Below are positions 3,956 to 64,000 of a stretch of DNA of 64,000 nucleotides, one piece after another. The notes below the pieces were generated by a model that saw only the letters and a list, made by a program, of their open reading frames with translations, searched no databases and had not been told where the DNA came from. Position numbers and translations under genes: made by a program. Positions within the stretch are counted from its first letter, which is position 1, and each line of letters opens with the position of its first letter. Origin of the DNA: a virus. The stretch is taken from IMG/VR virus record IMGVR_UViG_3300045988_135485; one strand, 5' to 3'.

Positions 3956-4286
3956 ATTAATTCTCCTTTATAATTCTACTTATAACTCTACTTGTAACTC
4001 TCACAATTCTTTTTCAAAGACTACGACCATAAATAATAGGTCAATTTCAAAGACCGCAGTCTCTTCCAATTCATACCAACAAAAACCAAAAAGAAGTCCG
4101 TTTTGCAAAAAACCAAATCTAACTGTCATAATCTTTTACTCCATCTTAATCCATTTTTATTCATATAACGCATAAGCCAAAGAATATGCTTATCACTAAG
4201 CACAGGAAATAGCTCATTACCATAATAATCAACTAAATTTATGTGCTTATATTTTATAGCTCTACATAAAATAAGATATTTTTTAT

Positions 4287-4625
4287 TCATTGTTCTTCAC
4301 TTTTCCTTAGTATAGTATTGATACGTTTTAATAATTTTTCATCCTCTTCATGACCAACAGTGGTCATTTCCATACAAAGAAGAACTCTTTCTTTACACTC
4401 TTTCAACAAATCTAAAAGTTCACCATATCTATTTACTTTATCAACAAAATCTTGCAAACTTGAACAACCCGGACATTCTACTTTATCGCCGTTCGGGAAT
4501 CGAAAAGCGAAAGTAAAATTTAAATTATTTACTGTAGTCACAAGCCTACCATCAGTTTTAAAATATTCAGTAGTATCTGCACCTTTTCTTACCAATAATC
4601 TTTCATCAGTCATTTTTTTTCTCAC
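4287..4625 (-). CDS. hypothetical protein
   Basis: Tiled ORF. A further 54-aa ORF (about 4126-4290) overlaps its stop by ATGA. Confidence 0.35.
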   Translation of the reverse strand: MRKKMTDERLLVRKGADTTEYFKTDGRLVTTVNNLNFTFAFRFPNGDKVECPGCSSLQDFVDKVNRYGELLDLLKECKERVLLCMEMTTVGHEEDEKLLKRINTILRKSEEQ

Positions 4626-4741
4626 TTTCTAGTAAACCACCAAATTAAAAATGTTATGCAGAGAATTAATACTATTACTGCATAGGATTCCTCTGTTGCA
4701 GGACAAACACATTTACCGTAAGTTATCATCTTTTCCTCACT

Positions 4742-5101
4742 TTACTTCAAAAAATTGAATTTCTTAAAGAAACTGAATATTTTATCAAGTGTCATCAGCT
4801 TTTCTCTTTCTTTCAACTGGATGCAAGCCTTAACCTGTTCCTGAAATTTTTTCTCGGCCTTGAAAAACAGAGGGACGGGAACGAGTAATTTTCTTTCAAT
4901 GTAGATTGTATCTCCGTTGGGCATTTCCACAAAAGTACGTTCTCCAGTTCCATCGTTAGAAAAAAGTCCCTTCACCAAGTCAATTTTCTCTCTGACAACC
5001 ATTTTCCCAGAAGTTTTAAATTCCGTAAATGCTATGTGTATATCTGCAATAGCCTTAAACTTTTTCGGGAGAAAAAAGTATTTATACTTATACTGGTTCA
5101 T
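4742..5101 (-). CDS. hypothetical protein
   Basis: Tiled ORF. Confidence 0.35.
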   Translation of the reverse strand: MNQYKYKYFFLPKKFKAIADIHIAFTEFKTSGKMVVREKIDLVKGLFSNDGTGERTFVEMPNGDTIYIERKLLVPVPLFFKAEKKFQEQVKACIQLKEREKLMTLDKIFSFFKKFNFLK

Positions 5102-5406
5102 TTTTCCTCACTTTCATGTTTAGCGATACAAAACCTTTTAACCGCAGATGTTATCCGAATAACGTCTTCGGTATCACAATTAAAGGTAATCCCTCTTGCG
5201 ACCATTTCCAAAAGGTTAAACATTTGTTTATTTTCCTCCTTTAATCGCTGCAACTCGTCATAATCACAAGGCGCGAGAACTTCTATAACATCTTCATGTT
5301 CACAAAATGCCCAAAGTTTCACATCTGACCGCCACCAAGCAAGTACAACTCTGTTATCTTTTAATTTTACGAAATAATATCCTAATTTCCGTGTGTTATC
5401 GTTCAT
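5098..5406 (-). CDS. hypothetical protein
   Basis: Tiled ORF with a 4-bp overlap with its neighbours. Confidence 0.35.
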   Translation of the reverse strand: MNDNTRKLGYYFVKLKDNRVVLAWWRSDVKLWAFCEHEDVIEVLAPCDYDELQRLKEENKQMFNLLEMVARGITFNCDTEDVIRITSAVKRFCIAKHESEEK

Positions 5407-6029
5407 TTTTCCTCACTTTCACCGAGAGCGACTTTAATTTGTGGATAAAGCAGGTTTTCGTGACTATCAGTATATCCCCAGATGTCGATATAGCGCAGGC
5501 ACTCTTTCAGCAATCCTCGAAGTTTTTCAATTTCTGACCGCTGGTTTGTAATAATACCTTTGGCTTCATAATTAAGCTTTTCCCGTTCCTCAACCTCAGT
5601 CCTAAGTTTGATAATACTATCACTCTGAACTGTCTGATACCAACGAGAAGATTCTAGGTCTATTCTTTGGTCAGCAACTTTTTCTTTAAGTTCATCAAGC
5701 TCTTTTTTCAGCTGTTCCTTATCATCAAGAAGCTTATTAACTATTTCACAAGCAGTATCATAGTCAATCGGTTTACCGACATAGCTTGTAACAACACGTC
5801 TAAGTTTAACAAGCTCTGCTCGCATAACCATATACTTGCCATAGGTAGGAACGTGAGAAAGGATTTTAACACAGTTGGCAGGATTTAATCTGTCCCATCG
5901 ACTTACAAAAATATTTTTATTTATATCTTGATAATAAAAATATCCTCTGCTGTATTTATTAAGCTTCCATTCATTTGTTAGCTTCTTTGATAATTTCTCT
6001 GCTGCTTTTTTATTAAATGTTTTAACCAT
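5403..6029 (-). CDS. hypothetical coiled-coil protein
   Basis: Heptad-like K/E-rich segment (KEQLKKELDELKEKVADQRIDLE). Confidence 0.35.
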   Translation of the reverse strand: MVKTFNKKAAEKLSKKLTNEWKLNKYSRGYFYYQDINKNIFVSRWDRLNPANCVKILSHVPTYGKYMVMRAELVKLRRVVTSYVGKPIDYDTACEIVNKLLDDKEQLKKELDELKEKVADQRIDLESSRWYQTVQSDSIIKLRTEVEEREKLNYEAKGIITNQRSEIEKLRGLLKECLRYIDIWGYTDSHENLLYPQIKVALGESEEK

Positions 6030-6364
6030 TAAATATCCTCCTTATCTAATCCTAGAACTTCATAAACTTTTATCATTTGTTCCAACGTGGGGTTAATATT
6101 ACGGAATTTGTGGAAAAGAGCTTTAAACATCTTATCAGCCTGTCTATTGTCTTTAGCTGCTTGTTCACTTTCCCAGAGATGACCATGCGGGTATTCTCCG
6201 CGATAATTGGTTTCTTTATCGAATTTTCCGTGCCAACCATATTTTTCAACTGTATAATATAAACGACCCACTTTCTCAATTGTACAGTTAAAGCCTTTAT
6301 CTCTCGGGTCTGATGGTTCAAACCATACTTCTTGACCTACTTTAAACATCTTTCTTATCCTCAT
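6029..6364 (-). CDS. hypothetical protein
   Basis: Tiled ORF. Confidence 0.35.
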   Translation of the reverse strand: MRIRKMFKVGQEVWFEPSDPRDKGFNCTIEKVGRLYYTVEKYGWHGKFDKETNYRGEYPHGHLWESEQAAKDNRQADKMFKALFHKFRNINPTLEQMIKVYEVLGLDKEDI

Positions 6365-6743
6365 AAAAATTTACTTCATCTCTGCGGACGGGGCGGCAGT
6401 GGTCAAAATAAGTTACAGCAACATTCTTGCCTTTATACCTGCCGAATTGGCTTTCCCAAGAATCATAATCAGCTAATAGTCCGGCTACTTTCTTTTCTTC
6501 TTCCAAATCCCAAAACCAGCAAAGGCACTTGTGGTCAATGATATATTGCCAGTCTGGCTCTGGGTCTTGGTGTAGCTCCCATCGGTTTGAAAAAATATCA
6601 CTTACGGATAAACTACAAAGAAAATCATTATCAGTAGCAACTAAACTACCTTTTTTTTGAATATACTTGTCTTTTTCCCAATTATTACATCTAATCTTTG
6701 CCCCTTTTCTGAACTCGGGCAGCAGTTCTTCTAAATATGTCAT
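6342..6743 (-). CDS. hypothetical protein
   Basis: Tiled ORF. Confidence 0.35.
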   Translation of the reverse strand: MTYLEELLPEFRKGAKIRCNNWEKDKYIQKKGSLVATDNDFLCSLSVSDIFSNRWELHQDPEPDWQYIIDHKCLCWFWDLEEEKKVAGLLADYDSWESQFGRYKGKNVAVTYFDHCRPVRRDEVNFYEDKKDV

Positions 6744-10704: not shown

Positions 10705-12035
10705 TAACCTACCTTTCTACTGTCTTCCTGTTTACGTTTAATAATATCCCACAAGCGATGCTCGACCTTAACATCGTAGAACAATCTATACACTCTGACA
10801 GGATATTTACGCCCGCCACGATCGGCTCGCTGTATTGCCTGTTTCCAGTTGCTGTCCTTATAATCAATGCTGACAAAGATAACAGTATCAACGTGTTCCC
10901 AGTTAAAACCGACAGCCATTGTTTCTGGAGAACCAATTACTACATCCAGCCTACCAGCTCGGAAATCTTGGTCAATTTTGCTTCGATTTTTACCGGAGAT
11001 GGACCCGTTAATTAACCCTGTCCTCAGCCCATATTCTTCGCACAGTTTAACGAGACGTTCCTGTTCAGCAGTGAATACTGAAAATATTAGGAGCGGCTTC
11101 CCAGAATTTTTAGTATCTTCGAGGTGAACTTTAAGCATCTCGTCTTTTCCAAGATAAGGAATCCCTTCCAATCCTATGCTTTCCGGTGCTTCTAAAATTT
11201 GACGACATCTCATTTGGTGAACGCCTCCGGAACCGGAATCGGTTAAGTAATTATCTTCCAATTCCAACAATGCTTTATCCTCAAATTCCTCATAGGCGTT
11301 GAGGTGAACTTTATCCATCCCACATTTTTCCGGAATTATAATCGGTTTTGGAGAACCTTTATAAGCTTCCTCAAAAGTCATTGCTACTGCTTCGCGAGCT
11401 AAAATCCTCTTAATCTTAGCATGATTTGTCCACTCGATAACTGTTCCAAAATCGTCCGTAATTGCGTGCTGATAAAGGAAGTTTTTATAACTGGCATAAT
11501 ATCTAGGCTCAATGACACGGATTGCGGGATAAGCTGAAGAAAGACGGCCGTCGATTAACGTTCCGGTCATTCCCAGAAAAAATTTTACCCTATTCATTGC
11601 TCCGTAAAAACTTTGGGTTCTTTTACTGTCGTTGGTCTTATACCCCATGTGAAATTCATCGACAACTACACCGTTAAATTCTTTCGGAAGTTTTTGCCAT
11701 TCGCGAGAGAAACAATCGAAACCCATCAGGAAAACTTTCACTTTCGGGTTTGCGTAAATTTCCTCTCTCTTCTTTGGAGTACCATCAACAACAGCTACCT
11801 CTTCAGGAAGAAAATCTGTAAATCTAAGAAGTTCGTCATAGTTCTTCTTCAGGAGGGATTTAGGCATAACAAATGCTACAATGGCTTTTTCTATTCTATT
11901 CAAATACTGAATATACAAACAAGCTGTAGGCGTTTTTCCTGTCCCCGGATGGGACAAATTTAACGACCGCTTCTTTGCTATATGGAAAGCTAAATGAGCG
12001 CTTTGATACGGTCTTAAAGTAAACCCTTCTACCAT
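10701..12035 (-). CDS. SNF2/SF2-family DNA helicase
   Basis: Walker A-like HPGTGKT, DExH box VVVDEFHMGY, and C-terminal helicase motif VI (QAIQRADRGGR). Confidence 0.75.
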   Translation of the reverse strand: MVEGFTLRPYQSAHLAFHIAKKRSLNLSHPGTGKTPTACLYIQYLNRIEKAIVAFVMPKSLLKKNYDELLRFTDFLPEEVAVVDGTPKKREEIYANPKVKVFLMGFDCFSREWQKLPKEFNGVVVDEFHMGYKTNDSKRTQSFYGAMNRVKFFLGMTGTLIDGRLSSAYPAIRVIEPRYYASYKNFLYQHAITDDFGTVIEWTNHAKIKRILAREAVAMTFEEAYKGSPKPIIIPEKCGMDKVHLNAYEEFEDKALLELEDNYLTDSGSGGVHQMRCRQILEAPESIGLEGIPYLGKDEMLKVHLEDTKNSGKPLLIFSVFTAEQERLVKLCEEYGLRTGLINGSISGKNRSKIDQDFRAGRLDVVIGSPETMAVGFNWEHVDTVIFVSIDYKDSNWKQAIQRADRGGRKYPVRVYRLFYDVKVEHRLWDIIKRKQEDSRKVGY

Positions 12036-12484: not shown

Positions 12485-12803
12485 TATTCTCTCCTAATAA
12501 ATTTTTGAAACTAGACGATTGAAGATGATAAGCCAAAATAGATTCCTTTTGACCGAGATAAATCTTCAGGTCTTCTCTCAGTTTCTCAACTGCTTCAACA
12601 TTCCCATTGTTAGCAAAGGCTCTTAACCATGCATACATTTCCGGAATCATTCTAATTAATTCTTTCGAAAAATCATCCTCAGTTTTAGCCAAGTACACTT
12701 CTTCTCCAGAAACTTTTAACCAACCGGGGCGGGCTAGGTTTTCTACCAACTCCATTTTAGATATTAGTTTTTGGATATTTTCACAACTATACGTTTCTGG
12801 CAT
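12477..12803 (-). CDS. hypothetical protein
   Basis: Tiled ORF. Confidence 0.3.
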   Translation of the reverse strand: MPETYSCENIQKLISKMELVENLARPGWLKVSGEEVYLAKTEDDFSKELIRMIPEMYAWLRAFANNGNVEAVEKLREDLKIYLGQKESILAYHLQSSSFKNLLGENNA

Positions 12804-13041: not shown

Positions 13042-13416
13042 TTACTTATAACTAATATCAAAAGATGGTTTAGTTTCATTAACAATTTCTTCCATGGATA
13101 AACCTGGAATATTCTTTCCGATTGTATGAGAATATTCATACTTAACCGGTCGTTCTCCTTCCGGCATATGCCATACCATTTCCCAGCCAGTTTCTGATAA
13201 CTTATAGGTAATATGTCTGGTCATTTTAATCGTAAACCGTCCAACTTTAAATTGTTTTGAGGTCTTATCCTCATCAATCATATCCCCGTATCTTTCGAGT
13301 AAAGATTTCTCCATTTCAACCCGAACTGCCTTTACGTCATTTTCGGTTTTCTTTTGATTCACATAAGCTTCCAAGAAAGCTTCGTCATCATATTCTACAT
13401 CTCTAAATTTAATCAT
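13042..13416 (-). CDS. hypothetical protein
   Basis: Tiled ORF. Confidence 0.35.
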   Translation of the reverse strand: MIKFRDVEYDDEAFLEAYVNQKKTENDVKAVRVEMEKSLLERYGDMIDEDKTSKQFKVGRFTIKMTRHITYKLSETGWEMVWHMPEGERPVKYEYSHTIGKNIPGLSMEEIVNETKPSFDISYK

Positions 13417-19082: not shown

Positions 19083-19100
19083 TGTTCCAACGTTGGAACA
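19083..19100. promoter_or_regulatory. 18-bp perfect palindrome TGTTCCAACGTTGGAACA (copy 1), candidate operator
   Basis: Self-complementary 18-mer about 50 bp upstream of the 18721-19032 gene. Confidence 0.6.
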
Positions 19101-19784: not shown

Positions 19785-19833
19785 AACTTGTTCCTTTCCT
19801 AAAACAAATTCAAGTTGTTCAAGTGGTTTAAGT

Positions 19834-19851
19834 TGTTCCAACGTTGGAACA
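19834..19851. promoter_or_regulatory. palindrome copy 2 (perfect)
   Basis: About 50 bp upstream of ATG 19784. Confidence 0.6.
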
Positions 19852-20405
19852 TTTACATTCTTCTAGAATGTTAATAATTTAGTTTTGTCTAAATAAGATG
19901 AAAAAATATTTTTGTGCTGTATTTGTCTAAAAATTAACCTACTTTTGAGTATGTAAAAATAGGTCGAAATTTACATACAAATTGGTATATATAATAATTT
20001 GTTGCTGTCTTCCTAAATTGTGTATTTGTGTATTTTCGGAAATGTATCCAAAAATACATCTGAAGATACGCAACCAATAAGCCAACTATTAAACCAGTCA
20101 ATAAAATGGTTATTAAACCAGTCATTAAACCCCACTTTTTTAGGCAGTGGTTGCATACACTGTCCTCTCTGGTACCCCCCTACCTGAAAGTAGGCTCATA
20201 TTACTCACAGCTAAAATTTTGAAGATTTTACCATCTTGAGAAAAGACACAGAGGCGGGGGCGTTTCTCAAAAAGGTCAAATTCGAGTTTTACAACCATGT
20301 TTTGTTTGGCATATTTCACGATTAAGTCGGATAAGTTCTTTACCATCGTTTGTTTCCTTTCAGTTGTGTTACCATGGTTTGTTTACCATGGTTTGTTTGC
20401 TAGGT

Positions 20406-20423
20406 TGTTCCAACGTTGGAACA
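20406..20423. promoter_or_regulatory. palindrome copy 3 (perfect)
   Basis: About 60 bp upstream of the small ORF 20140-20346. Confidence 0.6.
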
Positions 20424-21170
20424 ATCTTAAAATGAACGCGGAATCTTTTCCCAAAATTCTCCCCAAATTGATTCCGGATTTTGTTTCCAAATCTCGTCCG
20501 GAATCTGGTCCGGATTCTGGTCGGAATTGTCGCCGGAAAAAGTACTCAGTTTTATTCCCTCCCTAGACAAAGAGACGGAATTTTGAAAAAAAGGTATTAT
20601 TCTACCTTTTTTGGACAGAAAAATGAAAAAAACTAGAACCAAGATAGAACAATTATTTCACCATCTTTGACCAAGTTGTTGTTTTTACTCTTTTGTCTAG
20701 TTTTTTTTTGAGTTGACAGACTATTTTAAATTGTCTCTATATAGAATTTTTTTATAAATACCCCATAGGGTATATTTATCTTATTTTTTTTCCGTGAATC
20801 TTAAAAAAAAAAAAAAATCTATTTTAGACAAAATATATAAAAACAATGGGTTAGATGTAAACTACTCCAGTGGTGTTCTAATAATGTTCAAGTGGTTAAA
20901 AAAAAGCGGGTCCTTATTTTATTGTATAAGTTTCATTTGTCTAATTTGTCAGATGTTTTTTCTTGGTTTTTCAATGGCTTATTTTATTTTCTCCTTATAT
21001 AGTAAAAATGATACGTTTCAGTCTAAAAAGTGGTTCTTTGTCTAGACTGTGAAAGTGCTTGAAACGGGGAACGCCTTTGTCTATCTGGCATAGACGGGGT
21101 GTGGACGAAATTCCGCCCTTTCTTCTGTCAAGAAAATGTCTAACAGTCTAAAATCGACAAAATCTGTCAA

Positions 21171-21188
21171 TTTTCCAACGTTGGAACA
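21171..21188. promoter_or_regulatory. palindrome copy 4 (17/18)
   Basis: TTTTCCAACGTTGGAACA. Confidence 0.5.
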
Positions 21189-21200
21189 CGGAGTCAATTT

Positions 21201-21218
21201 TGTTCCAACGTTGGAACT
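21201..21218. promoter_or_regulatory. palindrome copy 5 (17/18)
   Basis: TGTTCCAACGTTGGAACT, 13 bp from copy 4. Confidence 0.5.
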
Positions 21219-21336
21219 TTTTCGGAATCCCTTAATATGATTCCAAAACTTTTTCGCGCGCCATCTTAAGCGGCCATTTAATATATAAATTAAAGAAAAA
21301 TAAAGAAAAGATATAAAGAGAATCCCGCCCGGGACT

Positions 21337-21354
21337 TGTTCCAACGTTGGAACA
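21337..21354. promoter_or_regulatory. palindrome copy 6 (perfect)
   Basis: Followed by the direct repeat cccggattcctgcccggattcctgcccgg. Confidence 0.6.
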
Positions 21355-21386
21355 AATCCCGGATTCCTGCCCGGATTCCTGCCCGG

Positions 21387-22187
21387 TTAGGCGGCCAACT
21401 TTTCGGTTGTTTGTATTTTCTGGTATGCCTGTGTTATCACTTCCACAACGTCGCCCGCCATCGTAACCGCCTCGCCATAACCGTAAATCTTAACAACGTT
21501 ATCAAACGCGGTTATAAATTCGCTGGCTGCTTGCATCAATACGACTTCCGGCGGAAGTTGTACCGATTCCGGGCTGTTTTCCGTTCCCGTTTCTGAATCT
21601 GATTCCGGGTTAGATTCTGATTCCGGGTTAGATTCTGATTCGTCGCTTGTGCTCGGCTTCGGCTGTTTTTCTGGCTTAAGAGCGTCATACAAACCGCGCA
21701 AACTTTCATAGTTTGCAAAAATACTGCCCGTTATTTCTGCAATAGCCGCGGCGGGCGTGCCTATTATGTTAGACTCTTTAATAATATCGCGGTTTAATTC
21801 GATTAATTTTAATGCCGCTTTAATTTTAGCGTAGATGGATGATTTTTGCGGGTGTGTCCGAATATCCGCGTTTATTTTAAATAAGTGTAAAATTATGTGC
21901 TTTCTGAATCCTTTTTCATCCATCTTTTTATTAAAAGTCGAGTAATATAAACGGGCTTTAAAGATTGACTTTACAACGGCGAGTCCAGCTAATCCGGCTT
22001 TGTTTTCCGCGTTTGTTTCTCTTAAATAGGCATTGTAACCCTCTTTTAAATAAGATAAAACTACTTCTTTCGGCTCGCCTGTAAAGTCATTTGACAAACG
22101 AACGTTGCGGGCGTTATTCTCATTTAACGGCTTATAGTCTGGCTTGTGCAGAGGTTGGGATGACTGGTTAATATGTTTAATAGACAT
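21387..22187 (-). CDS. hypothetical protein with ESNPES repeats
   Basis: 266-aa ORF. SESNPESESNPESDSE low-complexity insert. Palindrome 170 bp upstream. Confidence 0.4.
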   Translation of the reverse strand: MSIKHINQSSQPLHKPDYKPLNENNARNVRLSNDFTGEPKEVVLSYLKEGYNAYLRETNAENKAGLAGLAVVKSIFKARLYYSTFNKKMDEKGFRKHIILHLFKINADIRTHPQKSSIYAKIKAALKLIELNRDIIKESNIIGTPAAAIAEITGSIFANYESLRGLYDALKPEKQPKPSTSDESESNPESESNPESDSETGTENSPESVQLPPEVVLMQAASEFITAFDNVVKIYGYGEAVTMAGDVVEVITQAYQKIQTTEKLAA

Positions 22188-22353
22188 GATTTTGACTCCT
22201 GTATATAAAATGTTAATAAATGTTAATAGCTGTTATTTTCTTAATGATTCCACAAGCCCGCAAATAGCGGTGTATATGGTTATAAATAATATTGTGTAAA
22301 TAGCTAGTGTAAACATTGATGACTCCTTTTAGTTGGCTTATATGTTTATTTAA

Positions 22354-22371
22354 TGTTCTAACGTTAGAACA
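22354..22371. promoter_or_regulatory. palindrome copy 7, symmetric variant TGTTCTAACGTTAGAACA
   Basis: Compensatory C>T / G>A changes keep perfect dyad symmetry. Lies 170 bp upstream of the 21387-22187 gene. Confidence 0.55.
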
Positions 22372-22406
22372 TCTTTGATTTAGGCAATATTCAGATATTA
22401 CCGATA

Positions 22407-22428
22407 CGCGGGGGCGGCAACCCCCGCG
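22407..22428. other. GC-rich hairpin (8-bp stem CGCGGGGG / CCCCCGCG, 6-nt loop) without a U-tract
   Basis: Stands out in AT-rich DNA. Not followed by a T-run on either strand. Confidence 0.5.
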
Positions 22429-22534
22429 CGGTTTGCATAAAATTTACTTATTCACAATGTGCTATAACTACCAGCCGCCCGGCTGATGACTGTTATATAT
22501 AAGCTAATTAGTTACTTGTCAACTACTTTTTTGC

Positions 22535-22552
22535 ACTTTTTTTAAAAAAAGT
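22535..22552. promoter_or_regulatory. AC-T7-A7-GT 18-bp A/T palindrome (intrinsically bent DNA)
   Basis: actttttttaaaaaaagt. Confidence 0.4.
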
Positions 22553-22770
22553 ACACTTTTTTTAGTAAGTCATTGTTTTTGCGTGATTCTTTTTTTATGT
22601 TAAGTTTATTATAAGGTATACACACGGGCACGTGCTATACATGCAAACGTAACCTTTACATATAGGCCGGGTGATAGGGGTGTAGGCTTTTTATATGGGA
22701 GAATAAAAAGGTGGCGGAGAACAGGCCCCGATTCTGACCCCCCGCCCAAAACCATTTCCACCTAACACAA

Positions 22771-22842
22771 CCTACCAACTTACCTACCAACTTACCTACC
22801 AACTTACCTACCAACTTGCCTACCAACTTGCCTATCACCTGA
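22771..22842. repeat. 6 x 12-bp tandem repeat CCTACCAACTTA (iteron-like)
   Basis: Three perfect units, two with one substitution each (last A to G), and one degenerate unit. Confidence 0.8.
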
Positions 22843-22845
22843 CAG

Positions 22846-22909
22846 GACCGCGAACGCGAGCGCAGTCACTTTCGTGTTCGCGGTCGCATTCGCGGTCACG
22901 TTCGTTTTC
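22846..22909. repeat. GTRTTCGCGGTC repeat cluster (one inverted copy + two direct copies + a degenerate copy)
   Basis: gaccgcgaac ... gtgttcgcggtc gcattcgcggtc acgttcg. The same 12-mer recurs at 63846-63893. Confidence 0.75.
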
Positions 22910-23050
22910 ATTTTTGAGGTTCTCAGCAAGGGGAACGACCACGAACACGAACGCAAAAGCCGACATAAACTTGACAAGAATCTTAACCAGAACTAGAATC
23001 TTAACAGTCGACCAGAATAATCGACCAGAACAGGGAGGGAGAAACAACAA

Positions 23051-23533
23051 ATGGATTCAATGATAGCAGGCAACAGCCAAAATCAAAATGCACAAAATCT
23101 TAAACATAACTTCAAACAGATAACCTATACCAAAAACTCAACTAAACAGAAAGAGGAGCGTGCCTTCTTCAAGAATCGTGTTAAGAAAGCATTTCTTCAC
23201 TGGTTATATTACAAGGGGCTCATTCCGTGGAAAGAGCTCCCTTCTTTTTTAGATGTTCACCACAAGCATCCGCTAGGCGGTGGCGGCAGCAATGAATTTA
23301 CCAACTTGGTAATAATGGTCAGGCGAGACCATGAGAAAATGAACAGGGAAATAATAGAGCCGCAGTTGCGTGGCATTCGGGAGGGTGAAACCAGAGAAAT
23401 AACGGTTCCTTGGTGGAACTCTGAGAAGGGAGAATTTATTGATTGGGAAGGCATATACCGGTATTTGGAAGAGCTCGAACGCTCTCGACGTATGCGTTCC
23501 TCCGATCGCGCATGCGGTCGCGGAGGTAGATGA
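23051..23533 (+). CDS. HNH endonuclease
   Basis: DVHHKHPLGGGGSNEFTNLVIMVRRDHEKMN is an HNH core (HH...N...H). It is the only plus-strand gene in the left arm. Confidence 0.6.
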   Translation: MDSMIAGNSQNQNAQNLKHNFKQITYTKNSTKQKEERAFFKNRVKKAFLHWLYYKGLIPWKELPSFLDVHHKHPLGGGGSNEFTNLVIMVRRDHEKMNREIIEPQLRGIREGETREITVPWWNSEKGEFIDWEGIYRYLEELERSRRMRSSDRACGRGGR

Positions 23534-23627
23534 CGGTTGCATACACGAACATATATATGATTGTGTATGCGACCATATATGCAAAAAATTTGCACATATT
23601 AGCGGGAAAAGAGGTCATTCAATACAC

Positions 23628-23689
23628 TTTTTGCAAATAAATGCTAAAAAAGAGGCTTTTTTGCGGTTTTTAGCATTTATTTGCAAAAA
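23628..23689. promoter_or_regulatory. large perfect hairpin/palindrome (23-bp arms TTTTTGCAAATAAATGCTAAAAA, 16-nt spacer)
   Basis: Arms are exact reverse complements. No flanking U-tract. Confidence 0.6.
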
Positions 23690-23695
23690 AGTGTA

Positions 23696-23743
23696 AGAAA
23701 AAGGCCATTCTGTGTGAAAAAATCACACAGAACGGCCTTTTTT
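23696..23743. terminator. bidirectional rho-independent terminator
   Basis: A-run, 15-bp stem ggccattctgtgtga / tcacacagaacggcc with an aaaaa loop, then TTTTTT. Separates the convergent HNH (+) and primase (-) units. Confidence 0.75.
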
Positions 23744-23960
23744 AGCTTAAATTGGTTGATTTTGACCAATTTTGGTTCATCTCGGCGTATTTATGAAAAG
23801 ATTCCTCTATCTCGATACTTTTTTACCTGTTTCCGGTCCTGAATCTCGGCTCGTTTGCGTAGCCTTTTGGCTTTTTTATAGACCTCTCCGGTTACTTTCT
23901 TGCCTTCAAGAACGTATATGACAGCCTCCTTTTCCACAACCTCCTTTTCCTCAACCGATT

Positions 23961-26471
23961 CTACAGGTCGCTCTGCAAGCGGGCACCCGTCGTCTTGTCC
24001 ATTGTGAGTCCATTCACCATCAAGCCATCGACTTGAAAGCCCATAAAGTTGCCTAATTCGGTCAGCCTCCGTAAGAAGCCTCTCAACCCCACAGGCCTTG
24101 CACGGATAGTCGCACAGCAAAAGCTCGTGTATTTTTCGTACAGAGAATTTACCAATACTGAGCCGCTCCCGGTTTCCGTCCTCCTCGGTCCCTCCTCCGA
24201 GGTCAGGTAGAAAAAAACTGAGTCATTCTCACTGGCCATCTCCCTGATTATCTGTTGATGGCTGCTTGGTAAAGTAAAATCTCTTTGCTCTACCAATTCT
24301 CTAACGCAGGAGATAACCCATGCGGCAATGCCCTCTCTCTCCTCAGCGACTATTGTTTCACCAATGTTGCGGACTTTATCCTTCTTTTTAACCGCATGGT
24401 TGAACGTAAGAATGAGCCATCGTCTATTGAATCCTTCCGATACGTCCTTTGTCTTTGGCAGGTAGTTACTGGCAAACCAATGCGTCGCCATCGGCGTAAA
24501 GGAAAATATCGGTCTTCCTTTGTACTGGCCATCTAAGGTACTTCCGTCAATAATCGATTTAAAACTTGCTCCCGGAATCGGTTGCGATTCGTTTAACTCG
24601 CCACAAATGTTTAAAAGGGATTTGGATAATTCCGTTACTTCGAATTTATCTTCAAACTTGTAGGGAGTTACATATGAAATAACCTCCTTGGGTAGTAAGT
24701 GTTTAACTATTTCCAATAATTGAGATTTACCCGAGCCCGCAATACCATAGAGAAGAATGGCTCTGGCAAATGAGGGCCCCATTCCGAAGAAGGTTGCACA
24801 CATCGCTTCCTGAAGAGCTCTCTTTCTCGCTTCAAAATCCAGTTCCATACCCCAAATTGATTCCAGAAACTTATCAAATCTAGGATGATGGTCAACAAGC
24901 TCAGGTACATATCTGAAGGGCAGCGTATAGGTACATCCGAAGGAAGGGTCGTGAGGAAAGGTCATTCCGTCACTGCTTACGAAACAGTTTGCAAAATTGA
25001 CACCCTGTATTTTTCTACTATTCAGGTCAGTTTGAGGAACAATTGACTTTAATACTTTCAAAACCCCGGCATGATCGTGAGCCTTTCTTGCAGCAGGAAG
25101 ATTCCCGTAATTGTTAGCTACTAAACAAAGTATTTCCTGTTCAGACAATACTTCCCAGTTGGAGCCCTTATACTGCCAGAATTTATCATTCCAGAAGTGA
25201 ACTTCTCCTATTCTCTTCAGGTCTTCCAGCACGGCTCTGGCTATTTCCGTGTGGTCAATTCCCTCCAGTTCTCCCCGTCGCAGTTCCTGTAGACGTTTCT
25301 TTAGGCTAGGAACCTGAATAGTTTTACTGTTAGTTTGTTTTATGTAGGTGAAGACCGTATCTATTTCTAAGGACGTTAAATGCGGAGAACGACTAATTCT
25401 GCGTAGAACATATTCTATGGCCGAAATCCTTTGAATAGCCCCCTCATCTTCGTATTTTTCAAACTCGGTCTTGAGATAATCTTTCAGTTGTTCTACCGAC
25501 CATTCGTTATGTTCGGCATCGAATTTAAGACCCCAGCTTTCTTTCTGTTCCTCGGTAAGTCCGGTATCCCATCCGAGAGGAAGCGGTTTATTTTTCGGGC
25601 CTACAACATCCTGAATCAGGAACTGAATGAGGTTGCGGACACCTTTCTCGATGTCAATGTCGTCTCCGGCCACATTCTCAACACAGCAGGTTTTCCATAC
25701 ATACATACGGTCTATTGCTTCCAGCAGCGATAACTCTCCTCTGGTTACTGCATTTGCATAGAAGCCTGCCATCGTGGTCATCTTTACGTCACGGCTTCCC
25801 TGAGAAACGTAATCCGTAGTTCTGGTCCAGCCTGCGTGAGACAGCGTAATTCCGTAATCTTGGAAAGCGTTCCTTAACATGGATTCGAGGTTTTCCGGAA
25901 GAGGTTTCAGATAAGGTATAACCTCTGTAATCGGTTGATTACAAACGTACGGCTTCTGTGTTTTGGGATGTATTGACGGTGGTAGAACCACTTGGTTGCC
26001 GGAAGATAGACATTCACAAATCATGTGACCGTCTACGTCTTTAATTTTAAACGGTTTCTCTCCTTTATATTTATAAAGGAGAACTTTTCCCTTTTGTCCG
26101 ACACGTTCCCAAGGAGAATATCCACAGATTTCATTGATTATATTAATAAGTGTCTTATTCTCGGTATCAATATCAATGGCAACACATCCCGACTGCGGTC
26201 CTAACGGCAATCCTATGTTACTGTCCGGGAAATTGTTTAGCCAGTGGTCTTGTTCCTGAGGAAGCGGCATCTTGTCCTTATAAGAGGTCCAGTTTATCGG
26301 AATCGGTTCCTTGCCGCGAGGGCGTAACGGTATTACCGGAAGCCCTTTTTGCCAAAGAAGCGGGGCATTATTCTTGAAAAGGTCCTTATTCGGGAAAAGA
26401 GTTATGTTTTGGGAGATTTTTTCTTTCTCTTCTGCTAAGTCCTTGGCTAGTTTTAAAGTATTACCTGTCAT
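23961..26471 (-). CDS. primase-helicase (bifunctional prim-pol N-domain + D5/P4-type SF3 helicase)
   Basis: N-terminus GLPVIPLRPRGKEPI...NIGLPLGPQSGCVAIDIDTE matches the bifunctional primase/polymerase N-terminal signature. Walker A GIAGSGKSQLLE and Walker B-like WLILTFNH are present. Length is 836 aa. Confidence 0.7.
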   Translation of the reverse strand: MTGNTLKLAKDLAEEKEKISQNITLFPNKDLFKNNAPLLWQKGLPVIPLRPRGKEPIPINWTSYKDKMPLPQEQDHWLNNFPDSNIGLPLGPQSGCVAIDIDTENKTLINIINEICGYSPWERVGQKGKVLLYKYKGEKPFKIKDVDGHMICECLSSGNQVVLPPSIHPKTQKPYVCNQPITEVIPYLKPLPENLESMLRNAFQDYGITLSHAGWTRTTDYVSQGSRDVKMTTMAGFYANAVTRGELSLLEAIDRMYVWKTCCVENVAGDDIDIEKGVRNLIQFLIQDVVGPKNKPLPLGWDTGLTEEQKESWGLKFDAEHNEWSVEQLKDYLKTEFEKYEDEGAIQRISAIEYVLRRISRSPHLTSLEIDTVFTYIKQTNSKTIQVPSLKKRLQELRRGELEGIDHTEIARAVLEDLKRIGEVHFWNDKFWQYKGSNWEVLSEQEILCLVANNYGNLPAARKAHDHAGVLKVLKSIVPQTDLNSRKIQGVNFANCFVSSDGMTFPHDPSFGCTYTLPFRYVPELVDHHPRFDKFLESIWGMELDFEARKRALQEAMCATFFGMGPSFARAILLYGIAGSGKSQLLEIVKHLLPKEVISYVTPYKFEDKFEVTELSKSLLNICGELNESQPIPGASFKSIIDGSTLDGQYKGRPIFSFTPMATHWFASNYLPKTKDVSEGFNRRWLILTFNHAVKKKDKVRNIGETIVAEEREGIAAWVISCVRELVEQRDFTLPSSHQQIIREMASENDSVFFYLTSEEGPRRTETGSGSVLVNSLYEKYTSFCCATIRARPVGLRGFLRRLTELGNFMGFQVDGLMVNGLTMDKTTGARLQSDL

Positions 26472-63427: not shown

Positions 63428-63644
63428 TTGCGGTCTCCTCTACAGGTTCAACAGGGATAGATTTTGTTTTCAAAATGTCCAGCATTGATTTAGAAAAACA
63501 GTCCATCTGATTCGCTATTTTATCACTTATATTAACATAAGCTCTGGCTAAAGACTCTATTTCAAGAGCCGTTATATTTTCGTGTTTAAGATACTTATTA
63601 ATGGCTTCATAAAAAGTATCTTTAATCTGTTCGTCTGTCATCAT
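63420..63644 (-). CDS. hypothetical protein
   Basis: Tiled ORF. Confidence 0.3.
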   Translation of the reverse strand: MMTDEQIKDTFYEAINKYLKHENITALEIESLARAYVNISDKIANQMDCFSKSMLDILKTKSIPVEPVEETANE

Positions 63645-63828
63645 TTTTCTCCTTATTAATGGTTTCGTTCTTTTTCTCCGGTACCATTGAACAGAACAAT
63701 TTACCCATAGGAGTTTTCTTCAGTTCTTGGTCAATGATAAGGGAGGCTTTTTTTAGATTGTCTAAACACCATTTTCTTGCCGTAGCATTTCCTAAAACGT
63801 ATCCGACAACTAATCCAAGCCCCCTCAT
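63622..63828 (-). CDS. hypothetical small protein (first gene downstream of the 12-bp repeat array)
   Basis: ATG at 63828 (MRGLGLVVGY...). The track ORF extends into repeat-derived low complexity. Confidence 0.25.
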   Translation of the reverse strand: MRGLGLVVGYVLGNATARKWCLDNLKKASLIIDQELKKTPMGKLFCSMVPEKKNETINKEKNDDRRTD

Positions 63829-63845
63829 TTTACGCCTTCGCTTTC

Positions 63846-63893
63846 GTATTCGCGGTCGTGTTCGCGGTCGTATTCGCGGTCGTGTTCGCGGTT
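63846..63893. repeat. 4 x 12-bp tandem GTRTTCGCGGTC
   Basis: gtattcgcggtc gtgttcgcggtc gtattcgcggtc gtgttcgcggtt. Same unit as at 22874-22897, about 41 kb away. Confidence 0.8.
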
Positions 63894-64000
63894 GTCTGTT
63901 CAGCGACTGTCTGTGGCGTAGGAGTTGTCTGAGTCCCCGACGGGAAAGCAACCGGAAAACAACTCGGCTTAATGCGGCATAAAATAGACGCGTGAACCGG

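Follow-up and report, generated by a model that had tools for sequence, protein, structure and literature searches.

The question addressed here is whether the short tandem repeats in a gap between two divergent genes of a gut phage are dedicated protein-binding sites or variable filler between control elements. The gap (positions 22188-23050) lies between a gene encoding ESNPES repeats and an HNH endonuclease gene, in a 64-kb stretch of viral DNA (IMG/VR record IMGVR_UViG_3300045988_135485), referred to below as the window. A preliminary description of the sequence had listed a palindrome (copy 7 of its family), a GC hairpin, an A/T palindrome, a 12-mer array and a repeat cluster in this gap, together with four copies of one 12-mer at a distance of 41 kb, and had proposed iterons, centromere-like partition sites or packaging (pac) repeats. 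All of the listed elements exist at the coordinates given there. The repeats, in turn, are filler that evolves fast, and they do not represent conserved sites of replication or packaging; what was described is real but of an ordinary kind, and the proposed long-range link does not hold. The gap is probably a region of divergent early promoters and leaders, with slippage-type variable-number repeats in its spacers, an interpretation that the sequence features favor, if not strongly.

The evidence that carries this conclusion is the turnover of the arrays between close relatives. The comparison set consisted of 14 strains. In ten contigs (L023-L032) the encoded primase is identical to that of the window, and the other contigs compared are strain-level relatives, the furthest being L011 with 91% primase identity. 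The 12-mer array of the gap (unit CCTACCAACTTA, 22771-22842) comprises 5.4 copies at 98% identity according to Tandem Repeats Finder. It had been counted as six tandem 12-mers; the array is real, and it consists of five units (three exact, two with a final G) plus a degenerate sixth, CCTATCACCTGA. It is flanked by the degenerate terminal unit GCCTATCACCT, and a seed-like CCACCTAACACAACCTACC is also seen. The unit CCTACCAACTT is present in five copies in the window, three in L025, two in L030, one in nine of the 14 strains, and none in L011.

The adjacent cluster of GACCGCGAAC, GTGTTCGCGGTC and GCATTCGCGGTC at 22846-22909, with an inverted copy at 22937-22948, contains the units reported, but two imperfect palindromes describe it better than direct iterons do. 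Folding of the palindrome pair (22846-22953) gives z-scores of -4.2 (plus strand) and -5.1 (minus strand). At this position, L007/L028 carry (AACGCG)3 plus one unit, and in L027 a different 24-mer is amplified. The 12-mer shared with the distant locus, GTRTTCGCGGTC, is found in zero to two plus-strand copies at the gap locus; L036 and L037 are without it and have ACGTTCACGTTCGTGAACGT in its place. In L011 neither the CCTACCAACTT nor the GTRTTCGCGGTC unit occurs, and an array of an unrelated 13-mer (CGCTCTCATCTAT, about 4.5 copies) takes their place. The zone 22620-22675 is minimal in the window, while in most strains it holds a (CGCCCG)n-TATATA-(CGGGCG)n palindrome and G-rich arrays of 6, 12 or 18 nt; insertions there range from 50 to more than 150 nt in other strains. 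Arrays of unrelated units and periods occupy the matching position in three more distant relatives, L016, L017 and L018 (73%, 71% and 66% primase identity). The window also differs from L007 by insertions and deletions of repeat units in the arrays of the 14-21-kb segment. Scaffold gaps (runs of N) fall inside arrays in L026 and L027, and a Logan k=31 contig from the window's own sample stops within the 12-mer array.

Iterons are expected to be conserved in sequence and number among relatives with a common initiator. At identical or at least 99% identical primase, CCTACCAACTT ranges from one to five copies and GTRTTCGCGGTC from zero to two. Because strains with identical primases differ in every array, the arrays are not the initiator's iterons, even though an AT-rich element (22535-22600) and a nearby initiator gene (23961-26471), also sought in an iteron region, are present. 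A terminase recognition sequence should be conserved together with the terminase, which does not hold for the array sequences. Among the approximately 18 neighboring proteins scanned, none had a ParA or ParB domain. The comparison of the two loci in relatives, for which absence or lack of conservation had been named beforehand as the refuting outcome, gave the single-copy state of CCTACCAACTT in nine strains and the loss of GTRTTCGCGGTC in L036 and L037. With units that vary or vanish among near-identical strains, the arrays behave like none of the three proposed kinds of site, and by that refuting outcome the iteron and pac proposals fail for them; for the gap as a whole, packaging may still be relevant.

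The same data agree with what is expected of variable-number repeats. Copy number is polymorphic between near-identical genomes at both loci and at the arrays of the 14-21-kb segment. Unrelated units have arisen independently at the same site in relatives, and a degenerate unit flanks the array. The genic units (12 nt encoding TTAN at the distant locus; 18 nt in the ESNPES gene, 21598-21641) are divisible by three and encode amino-acid repeats. Slippage would account for such behavior. The closest parallel to the repeat behavior is the tandem repeats of Borg elements (10.1101/2022.05.18.492195), which are likewise head-to-tail, near-perfect, genic as well as intergenic, fast-evolving, and present or absent among close relatives. 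There, too, genic units divisible by three produce low-complexity protein segments (here TTAN and ESNPES), and assemblers collapse or break at the arrays. However, Borgs are megabase-scale archaeal elements, whereas the present genome is that of a 73-kb bacteriophage. Its intergenic arrays are concentrated in the leaders of early genes and in a single control region, where the layout is conserved and the strand bias is fixed. In addition, only 14-38% of intergenic Borg unit lengths are divisible by three, whereas period 12 dominates here even outside genes. For practical purposes, tandem arrays in this abundant gut phage serve as strain markers and break assemblies, and they are unreliable signposts of an origin or packaging site.

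The distant locus requires a different description. The four tandem copies at 63846-63893 had been placed in non-coding DNA upstream of the minus-strand gene 63622-63828. They belong instead to the 3'-terminal part of the minus-strand gene before it, which has its stop codon at 63830-63832; this gene extends past the end of the window and is hence missing from the list of open reading frames (ORFs). Its translation in the window ends in ...AEQTTANTTANTTANTTANTKAKA before the stop, following the pattern ...AEQ(TTAN)nTKAKA, with n = 4 in the window and 2-6 in six other strains, in all six of which the gene is called. The sequence kinship of the two loci is genuine. With at most one mismatch, GTRTTCGCGGTC has eight matches in the window against 0.11 expected, no shuffled sequence reached eight, and the similarity runs about 15 nt past the repeat on one side (CGCAGTCACTTTCGT versus CGCCTTCGCTTTCGT). 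The idea of a single 12-mer family at two loci 41 kb apart therefore survives as similarity between a coding repeat and a short palindromic relative, not as two intergenic arrays. The minus frame of the gap locus reads TANATANTK, and this locus is plausibly a decayed, short palindromic relative of the coding tail rather than an independent binding array. A minus-strand ORF at the gap locus (beginning MKTNVTANATANTK) was rejected as a gene because it lacks a ribosome-binding site and, in L007/L028, also a start codon. The end of the window, position 64000, is the exact end of ENA contig ERZ913389 k127_78163 (50,444 bp), about 107 nt beyond the TTAN array, and the source assembly probably breaks near this variable array. 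Both pipelines and readers should check the coding status at window edges before repeats are called intergenic.

The non-repetitive elements of the gap (Table 1) are those of a control region, as had been proposed: the sigma-70-type promoter PR, a candidate promoter PL, an operator-type palindrome and a leader hairpin stand between divergent genes. PR, whose sequence is invariant in 11 strains, would drive the HNH gene. Transcription from PL would yield a leader with the GC hairpin, the operator-type palindrome and the 27-codon ORF, followed by the ESNPES-repeat gene. The arrays in the spacers grow, shrink and give way to other units from strain to strain, like the other coding and intergenic arrays of the early region. 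PL was found by direct reading; the promoter scan demanded T at the sixth -10 position, and PL is thus not in its output. A TTGTCAA box is kept at the PL position in L016, L017 and L018. The AT-rich block is near-invariant in 11 strains and conserved across the haplotype boundary, with phased T-runs, and its GATTCTTTTTTTAT element is also present in L017.

Table 1. Features of the gap, its surroundings and the distant locus (window coordinates)
Feature	Position	Strand	Details
Early genes	1-22187	minus	
12-mer array, core GAATCCGG (x2.4), and TTGTTCCAACGTTGGAACAA palindrome	21336-21386 (also 20470-20527)	minus	in second large non-coding gap, 20347-21386
Gap	22188-23050		between ESNPES-repeat gene and HNH gene
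27-codon hydrophobic ORF (MFTLAIYTILFITIYTAICGLVESLRK)	22233-22316	minus	strong ribosome-binding site AAAAGGAG, 7 nt spacing
Perfect palindrome ATGTTCTAACGTTAGAACAT	22353-22372		seventh member of GTTCYAACGTTRGAAC family, variant of GTTCCAACGTTGGAAC
GC hairpin	22407-22428	minus	-23.6 kcal/mol; z -2.55 on minus strand
Candidate PL	22494-22522	minus	TTGACA (22522..22517), 17 nt, TATATA (22499..22494)
AT-rich block	22535-22600		contains A/T palindrome 22535-22552 and GATTCTTTTTTTAT
Hypervariable GC-/G-rich zone	22620-22675	plus	minimal in window
Unique conserved centre	22676-22770		AGGGGTGTAGGCTTTTTAT ... (CCCATTTT box in relatives) ... TTTCCACCTAACACAA
CCTACCAACTTR tandem array	22771-22842	plus	five units and degenerate sixth; strain-specific expansion
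Adjoining pair of long imperfect palindromes	22846-22897 and 22899-22953		composed of GTTCGCGGTC/GACCGCGAAC-type units
PR (sigma-70-type, by consensus)	22971-22999	plus	TTGACA, 17 nt, TAGAAT; 11/12 consensus positions
PR segment	22971-23050	plus	also short direct repeats and GGGAGGG ribosome-binding site of HNH gene
HNH endonuclease gene	23051-23533	plus	motif DVHHKHPLGGGGSNEF...DHEKMN
PrimPol-D5 primase-helicase gene	23961-26471	minus	836 aa; PrimPol and D5_N/DUF5906 helicase; 0.9 kb from gap
181-aa gene and 76-aa HTH_17 gene	between primase and TerL	minus	
TerL, then portal	27516 (TerL)	plus	
Coding (TTAN)n-TKAKA-stop tail	63830-63893	minus	C-terminus of 144-156-aa protein

The description of the gap as non-coding overlooked the 27-codon ORF and is correct for the remainder, which has stops in all six frames. 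No gene is recognized in the gap save this small ORF, which gene finders leave uncalled. Of nine window-type strains, eight have it intact and at the same length, and L031 has a frameshift; the alternative haplotype (L024, L027) has a called ORF of 54 aa in its place. Six-frame translation of the gap gives several TAA, TAG and TGA codons in every frame, and a recoded gene under an alternative code was ruled out, since each frame contains all three stops.

The palindrome upstream of this ORF belongs to a family. Six further copies of GTTCCAACGTTGGAAC occur at 19084, 19835, 20407, 21172, 21202 and 21338, and the window contains eight matches against 0.15 expected. The first three copies stand about 50-75 nt upstream of early-gene start codons, the copy in the gap (22355) stands about 38 nt upstream of the start of the 27-codon ORF, and the remaining three sit in the second non-coding gap. 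Between the GTTCYAACGTTRGAAC palindrome and the ribosome-binding site there is often a short, variable tandem array (e.g., 19809-19838 and 20339-20398). A GTTCCA..TGGAAC palindrome is found at the matching position in L016. The GTTCYAACGTTRGAAC palindromes look like a regulon operator or a leader hairpin.

The GC hairpin has no U-tract on either strand, in agreement with the preliminary description. Its variants in L007/L028, L030 and L036 form G.U pairs in minus-strand RNA and C.A mismatches in plus-strand RNA. The hairpin is assigned to the leftward leader because these three variant forms keep pairing solely in minus-strand RNA. It is absent from the alternative, L024-type haplotype. In L036 (about 12715-12745) the hairpin loop is reverse-complemented, CGGCAA to TTGCCG, i.e., the whole palindrome is flipped.

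Several observations weigh against the interpretation of the gap as promoters separated by slipping repeats. PL and PR are promoters by consensus match only. Period 12 is the commonest tandem unit length, non-coding DNA included, with arrays at 3958, 14694, 16702, 20071, 20490, 21358 and 22770 in the window and examples such as TCAGGACTAGAG (x10.6) and CAAAATCCGGTC (x5.8) in relatives. The layout of the gap, moreover, is conserved. The centre (22676-22770) is invariant within the species, its motif occurs once in 64 kb, and its boxes AAGGGGTAYA ... CCCATTTT ... AWTTCNACCTRACAC are kept in L016, L017 and L018. In these relatives the order is the same: leftward -35 box, A/T block, G-rich arrays, centre, C-rich arrays and PR, with a primase terminator in L018 where the others have PR. 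The C-rich arrays of the relatives are built from unrelated units (a 12-mer x10.6 with an 18-mer x7; a 34-mer; GACAGG-type hexamers). In all 12 genomes examined, the GC skew is positive left of the centre and negative right of it. The persistence of the layout down to 66% primase identity despite the turnover of units suggests that the presence or the composition of the arrays is selected, and pure neutral slippage does not predict a conserved layout and skew sign.

A proposal built on this conservation, considered doubtful here, is that the centre (AAGGGGTAYA ... CCCATTTT ... ACCTAACAC) may be a genome-end or terminal-repeat junction element, or else an origin, in a widespread family of gut phages, with selection on the composition and repetitiveness of the arrays rather than on their sequence. 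On both strands, the 5'-to-3' direction of the G-rich strand leads towards the centre, which is the polarity of two joined telomere-like ends. If this were true, the arrays would be functional as a class whatever their sequence, for example as buffers or structures in the cutting of concatemers, the protection of ends, DNA entry or R-loop priming. The family-wide layout (centre, arrays of opposite bias, synteny with terminal-repeat edges, HNH neighbor) could point to the genome ends or origin of an uncultured and highly prevalent phage group.

Phages with a related terminase bear on the possibility that the gap lies at a genome end. TerL is 36-39% identical to that of Caulobacter phage Seuss, Achromobacter phage JWF and Acinetobacter phage EAb13, and 33.5% identical to that of Xylophilus phage Lumi; the JWF record annotates its terminase as similar to SPO1 gp2.11. 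These four phages and the window also have the local order in common: minus-strand early genes, optional HNH genes, minus-strand primase, a gene of about 180 aa, TerL and portal. The direct terminal repeat (DTR) measures 1,748 bp in Seuss (read-determined; PMC4591317), 2,177 bp in EAb13 (PhageTerm; PMC10508131) and 2,298 bp in Lumi (read-determined; PMC9959647). The DTR edge is 626 bp from the primase 3' end in Seuss, 362 bp in EAb13 and about 480 bp in Lumi, and in L018, where no HNH gene is inserted, 296 bp separate the centre from the primase stop codon. By this synteny, the gap would lie at or inside a terminal repeat. As the primase-proximal DTR edge or DTR interior, it might have a centre and arrays that serve concatemer processing, packaging or DNA entry; for the arrays as a class, structure or composition would matter and the exact sequence would not. 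In line with this, the centre motif is unique in the window, and Seuss (L014, 1860-1977) has five direct, unannotated copies of CCGCTCGCGGGTC, spaced 32, 32, 20 and 20 nt, at 110-230 bp outside its DTR edge. Moreover, 11-13 of the approximately 18 contig ends seen fall within 19.8-23.8 kb, with clusters at 21317-21349 (left) and about 23619-23758 (right pair) that are about 2.3-2.4 kb apart, the DTR size of the relatives; this is a weak lead.

The contig ends, however, fall on palindromes and arrays, and the full-length contigs do not all open at one point. A collapsed DTR would give a circular assembly graph, in which no break is expected. As physical termini the contig ends were rejected, as repeats and strain mixtures explain them equally well and Logan k=31 breaks are expected at such places. 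The centre is conserved within the family as a recognition sequence should be, but it matches the Seuss, Lumi and EAb13 edges inconsistently: GGGGTG-like strings occur near all three, in inconsistent orientation and in GC-rich genomes. A TCGCGG(G)TC core common to the window and the Seuss repeats was dismissed as a terminase site; it is absent from L016, L017 and L019, occurs once in L018, and is regarded as coincidental.

Better-known terminal repeats offer partial parallels. Short C/A-rich arrays (CCTAAAG type) flank the unique junction of T7 on both sides, near early promoters. The gap is alike in having short-unit arrays on both sides of a unique sequence near early promoters, but the T7 arrays, which belong as fixed features to the junction of a 160-bp terminal repeat, have a mapped role in concatemer processing, whereas the relatives of this phage have repeats of 1.7-2.3 kb. 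The T5 terminal repeat contains untranslated repeat regions, one of them split by an HNH gene and one overrunning the repeat edge (10.1101/866236). In the left copy, these repeat regions (the injection-stop-signal region) resemble the gap in their place within or at the inner edge of a terminal repeat (here by synteny), in the interrupting or adjoining HNH gene and in their location among early genes. In T5-like phages, however, the repeat regions are highly conserved in sequence and order, whereas the units turn over here; T5 also has DnaA boxes, and none was identified in the gap, no test for them having been made. On balance, a role of the centre and of the arrays, taken as a class, at genome ends or in packaging is rather unlikely.

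The proximity of the primase raises the alternative of a replication origin, which is judged improbable. In this case, the centre and the AT-rich block would be bound and unwound for the PrimPol-D5 primase-helicase, the arrays would aid strand opening (R-loop or G-quadruplex), and a second site like that of the P4 ori/crr system would be optional. The P4 alpha protein binds repeated octamers at ori and at the distant crr, and the origins of Streptococcus and Lactococcus phages are repeat-rich non-coding stretches beside P4-type primase genes. The gap shares with P4 the short direct repeats near a primase-helicase gene (PrimPol plus D5_N/DUF5906 helicase, 0.9 kb away), the distant second cluster and the adjacent AT-rich block, here near-invariant and with phased T-runs next to a unique conserved centre. 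The G-rich arrays of most strains additionally hold G-quadruplex-type runs, such as GGGGACGGGAACGGGGACGGGGG. The gap differs from P4 in that strains with the same primase differ in every array, mostly having one CCTACCAACTT unit, and in that the second cluster lies inside a coding sequence. Furthermore, the skew, G-rich on the left and C-rich on the right, is the reverse of the usual leading-strand pattern around origins, and no DnaA box or other known origin signature turned up, none having been tested for.

A further alternative is that the spacers encode short non-coding RNAs, with arrays as functional RNA repeats. The transcripts could be convergent, G-rich and ending at the centre, or a rightward C-rich transcript could end at the hairpin 22846-22897 with its U-rich tail. 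Strand composition in the gap mirrors the genome-wide G-rich non-template strand, there are terminator-like hairpins with U-runs at 22730-22715 (minus strand) and 22882-22897 (plus strand), and the L024-type haplotype has a perfect TATAAT just upstream of its GC-rich palindrome. Nevertheless, this explanation is very improbable. Rfam gave no match (gathering score) and tRNA and tmRNA scans found none across the 64 kb, the centre has no conserved structure on either strand and no significant fold z-scores, the promoter scan yielded no convincing promoters for such transcripts, and the array sequences are not conserved.

With respect to protein binding, the second large non-coding gap offers a better lead than the arrays discussed so far. 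It contains a minus-strand 12-mer array followed by a palindrome (Table 1), and the same module recurs in the relatives. A AAAATCCGG-core 12-mer array precedes a TTCCA..TGGAA palindrome in L016 (x6; 13068-13160) and L017 (x7; 12604-12740), and in L018 (x3; 11737-11800) the array is followed by only a partial TTCCAGTGG motif. The core is (A/G)AATCCGG, directly followed by GTTCCA..TGGAAC, with copy numbers from 2.4 to 7. The AAATCCGG-core array with its palindrome is a better candidate than the gap arrays for an iteron or a conserved protein-binding site, and it provides a concrete candidate for a conserved site to which a regulator binds.

The phage itself is a lytic-type siphophage with a genome of about 72-76 kb (approximately 73 kb), of which the window covers 64 kb. 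The phage is found very often in human gut metagenomes: 437 blocks of the collection index one of its proteins, and full-length contigs of 72-76 kb were recovered from many cohorts. A contig from sample ERR209833 is 100% identical to the window over the stretches compared. Searches at near and distant sensitivity found no DNA similarity between the window and deposited phages. Between the primase and TerL, the HTH_17 and 181-aa proteins were considered as the separate parts of an EAb13 fusion; this was ruled out, the homology being limited to the 181-aa part. In L016, an IS607-like insertion between TerL and the HTH_17 gene (4256-6015) contains a serine recombinase with a MerR/HTH_17 domain and an OrfB_IS605/TnpB gene.

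The HNH gene downstream of PR is a variable cassette with at least three allele types among the strains (156-168 aa). No correlation between HNH allele and array state was evident in the 11-strain alignment. The syntenic site holds an RNase H gene in L017, no gene in L018 and L019, and two endonuclease genes in JWF. The convergent gap between the HNH and primase genes (23534-23960) contains a strong bidirectional terminator-like hairpin at 23700-23745 and a 15-mer array (x2.4; 23921-23956); in L011 (12640-12790) this gap holds two copies of a 33-mer. Beyond the window, in L001-L006 at about 5100-6600 (window-equivalent about 66.8-68.3 kb), small genes differ in order and orientation among strains. 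They include Gp53-like_C (tail-fibre tip) and adjoin an F5/F8 type C-domain protein of variable length, and their arrangement suggests an invertible or shuffling receptor-binding cassette.

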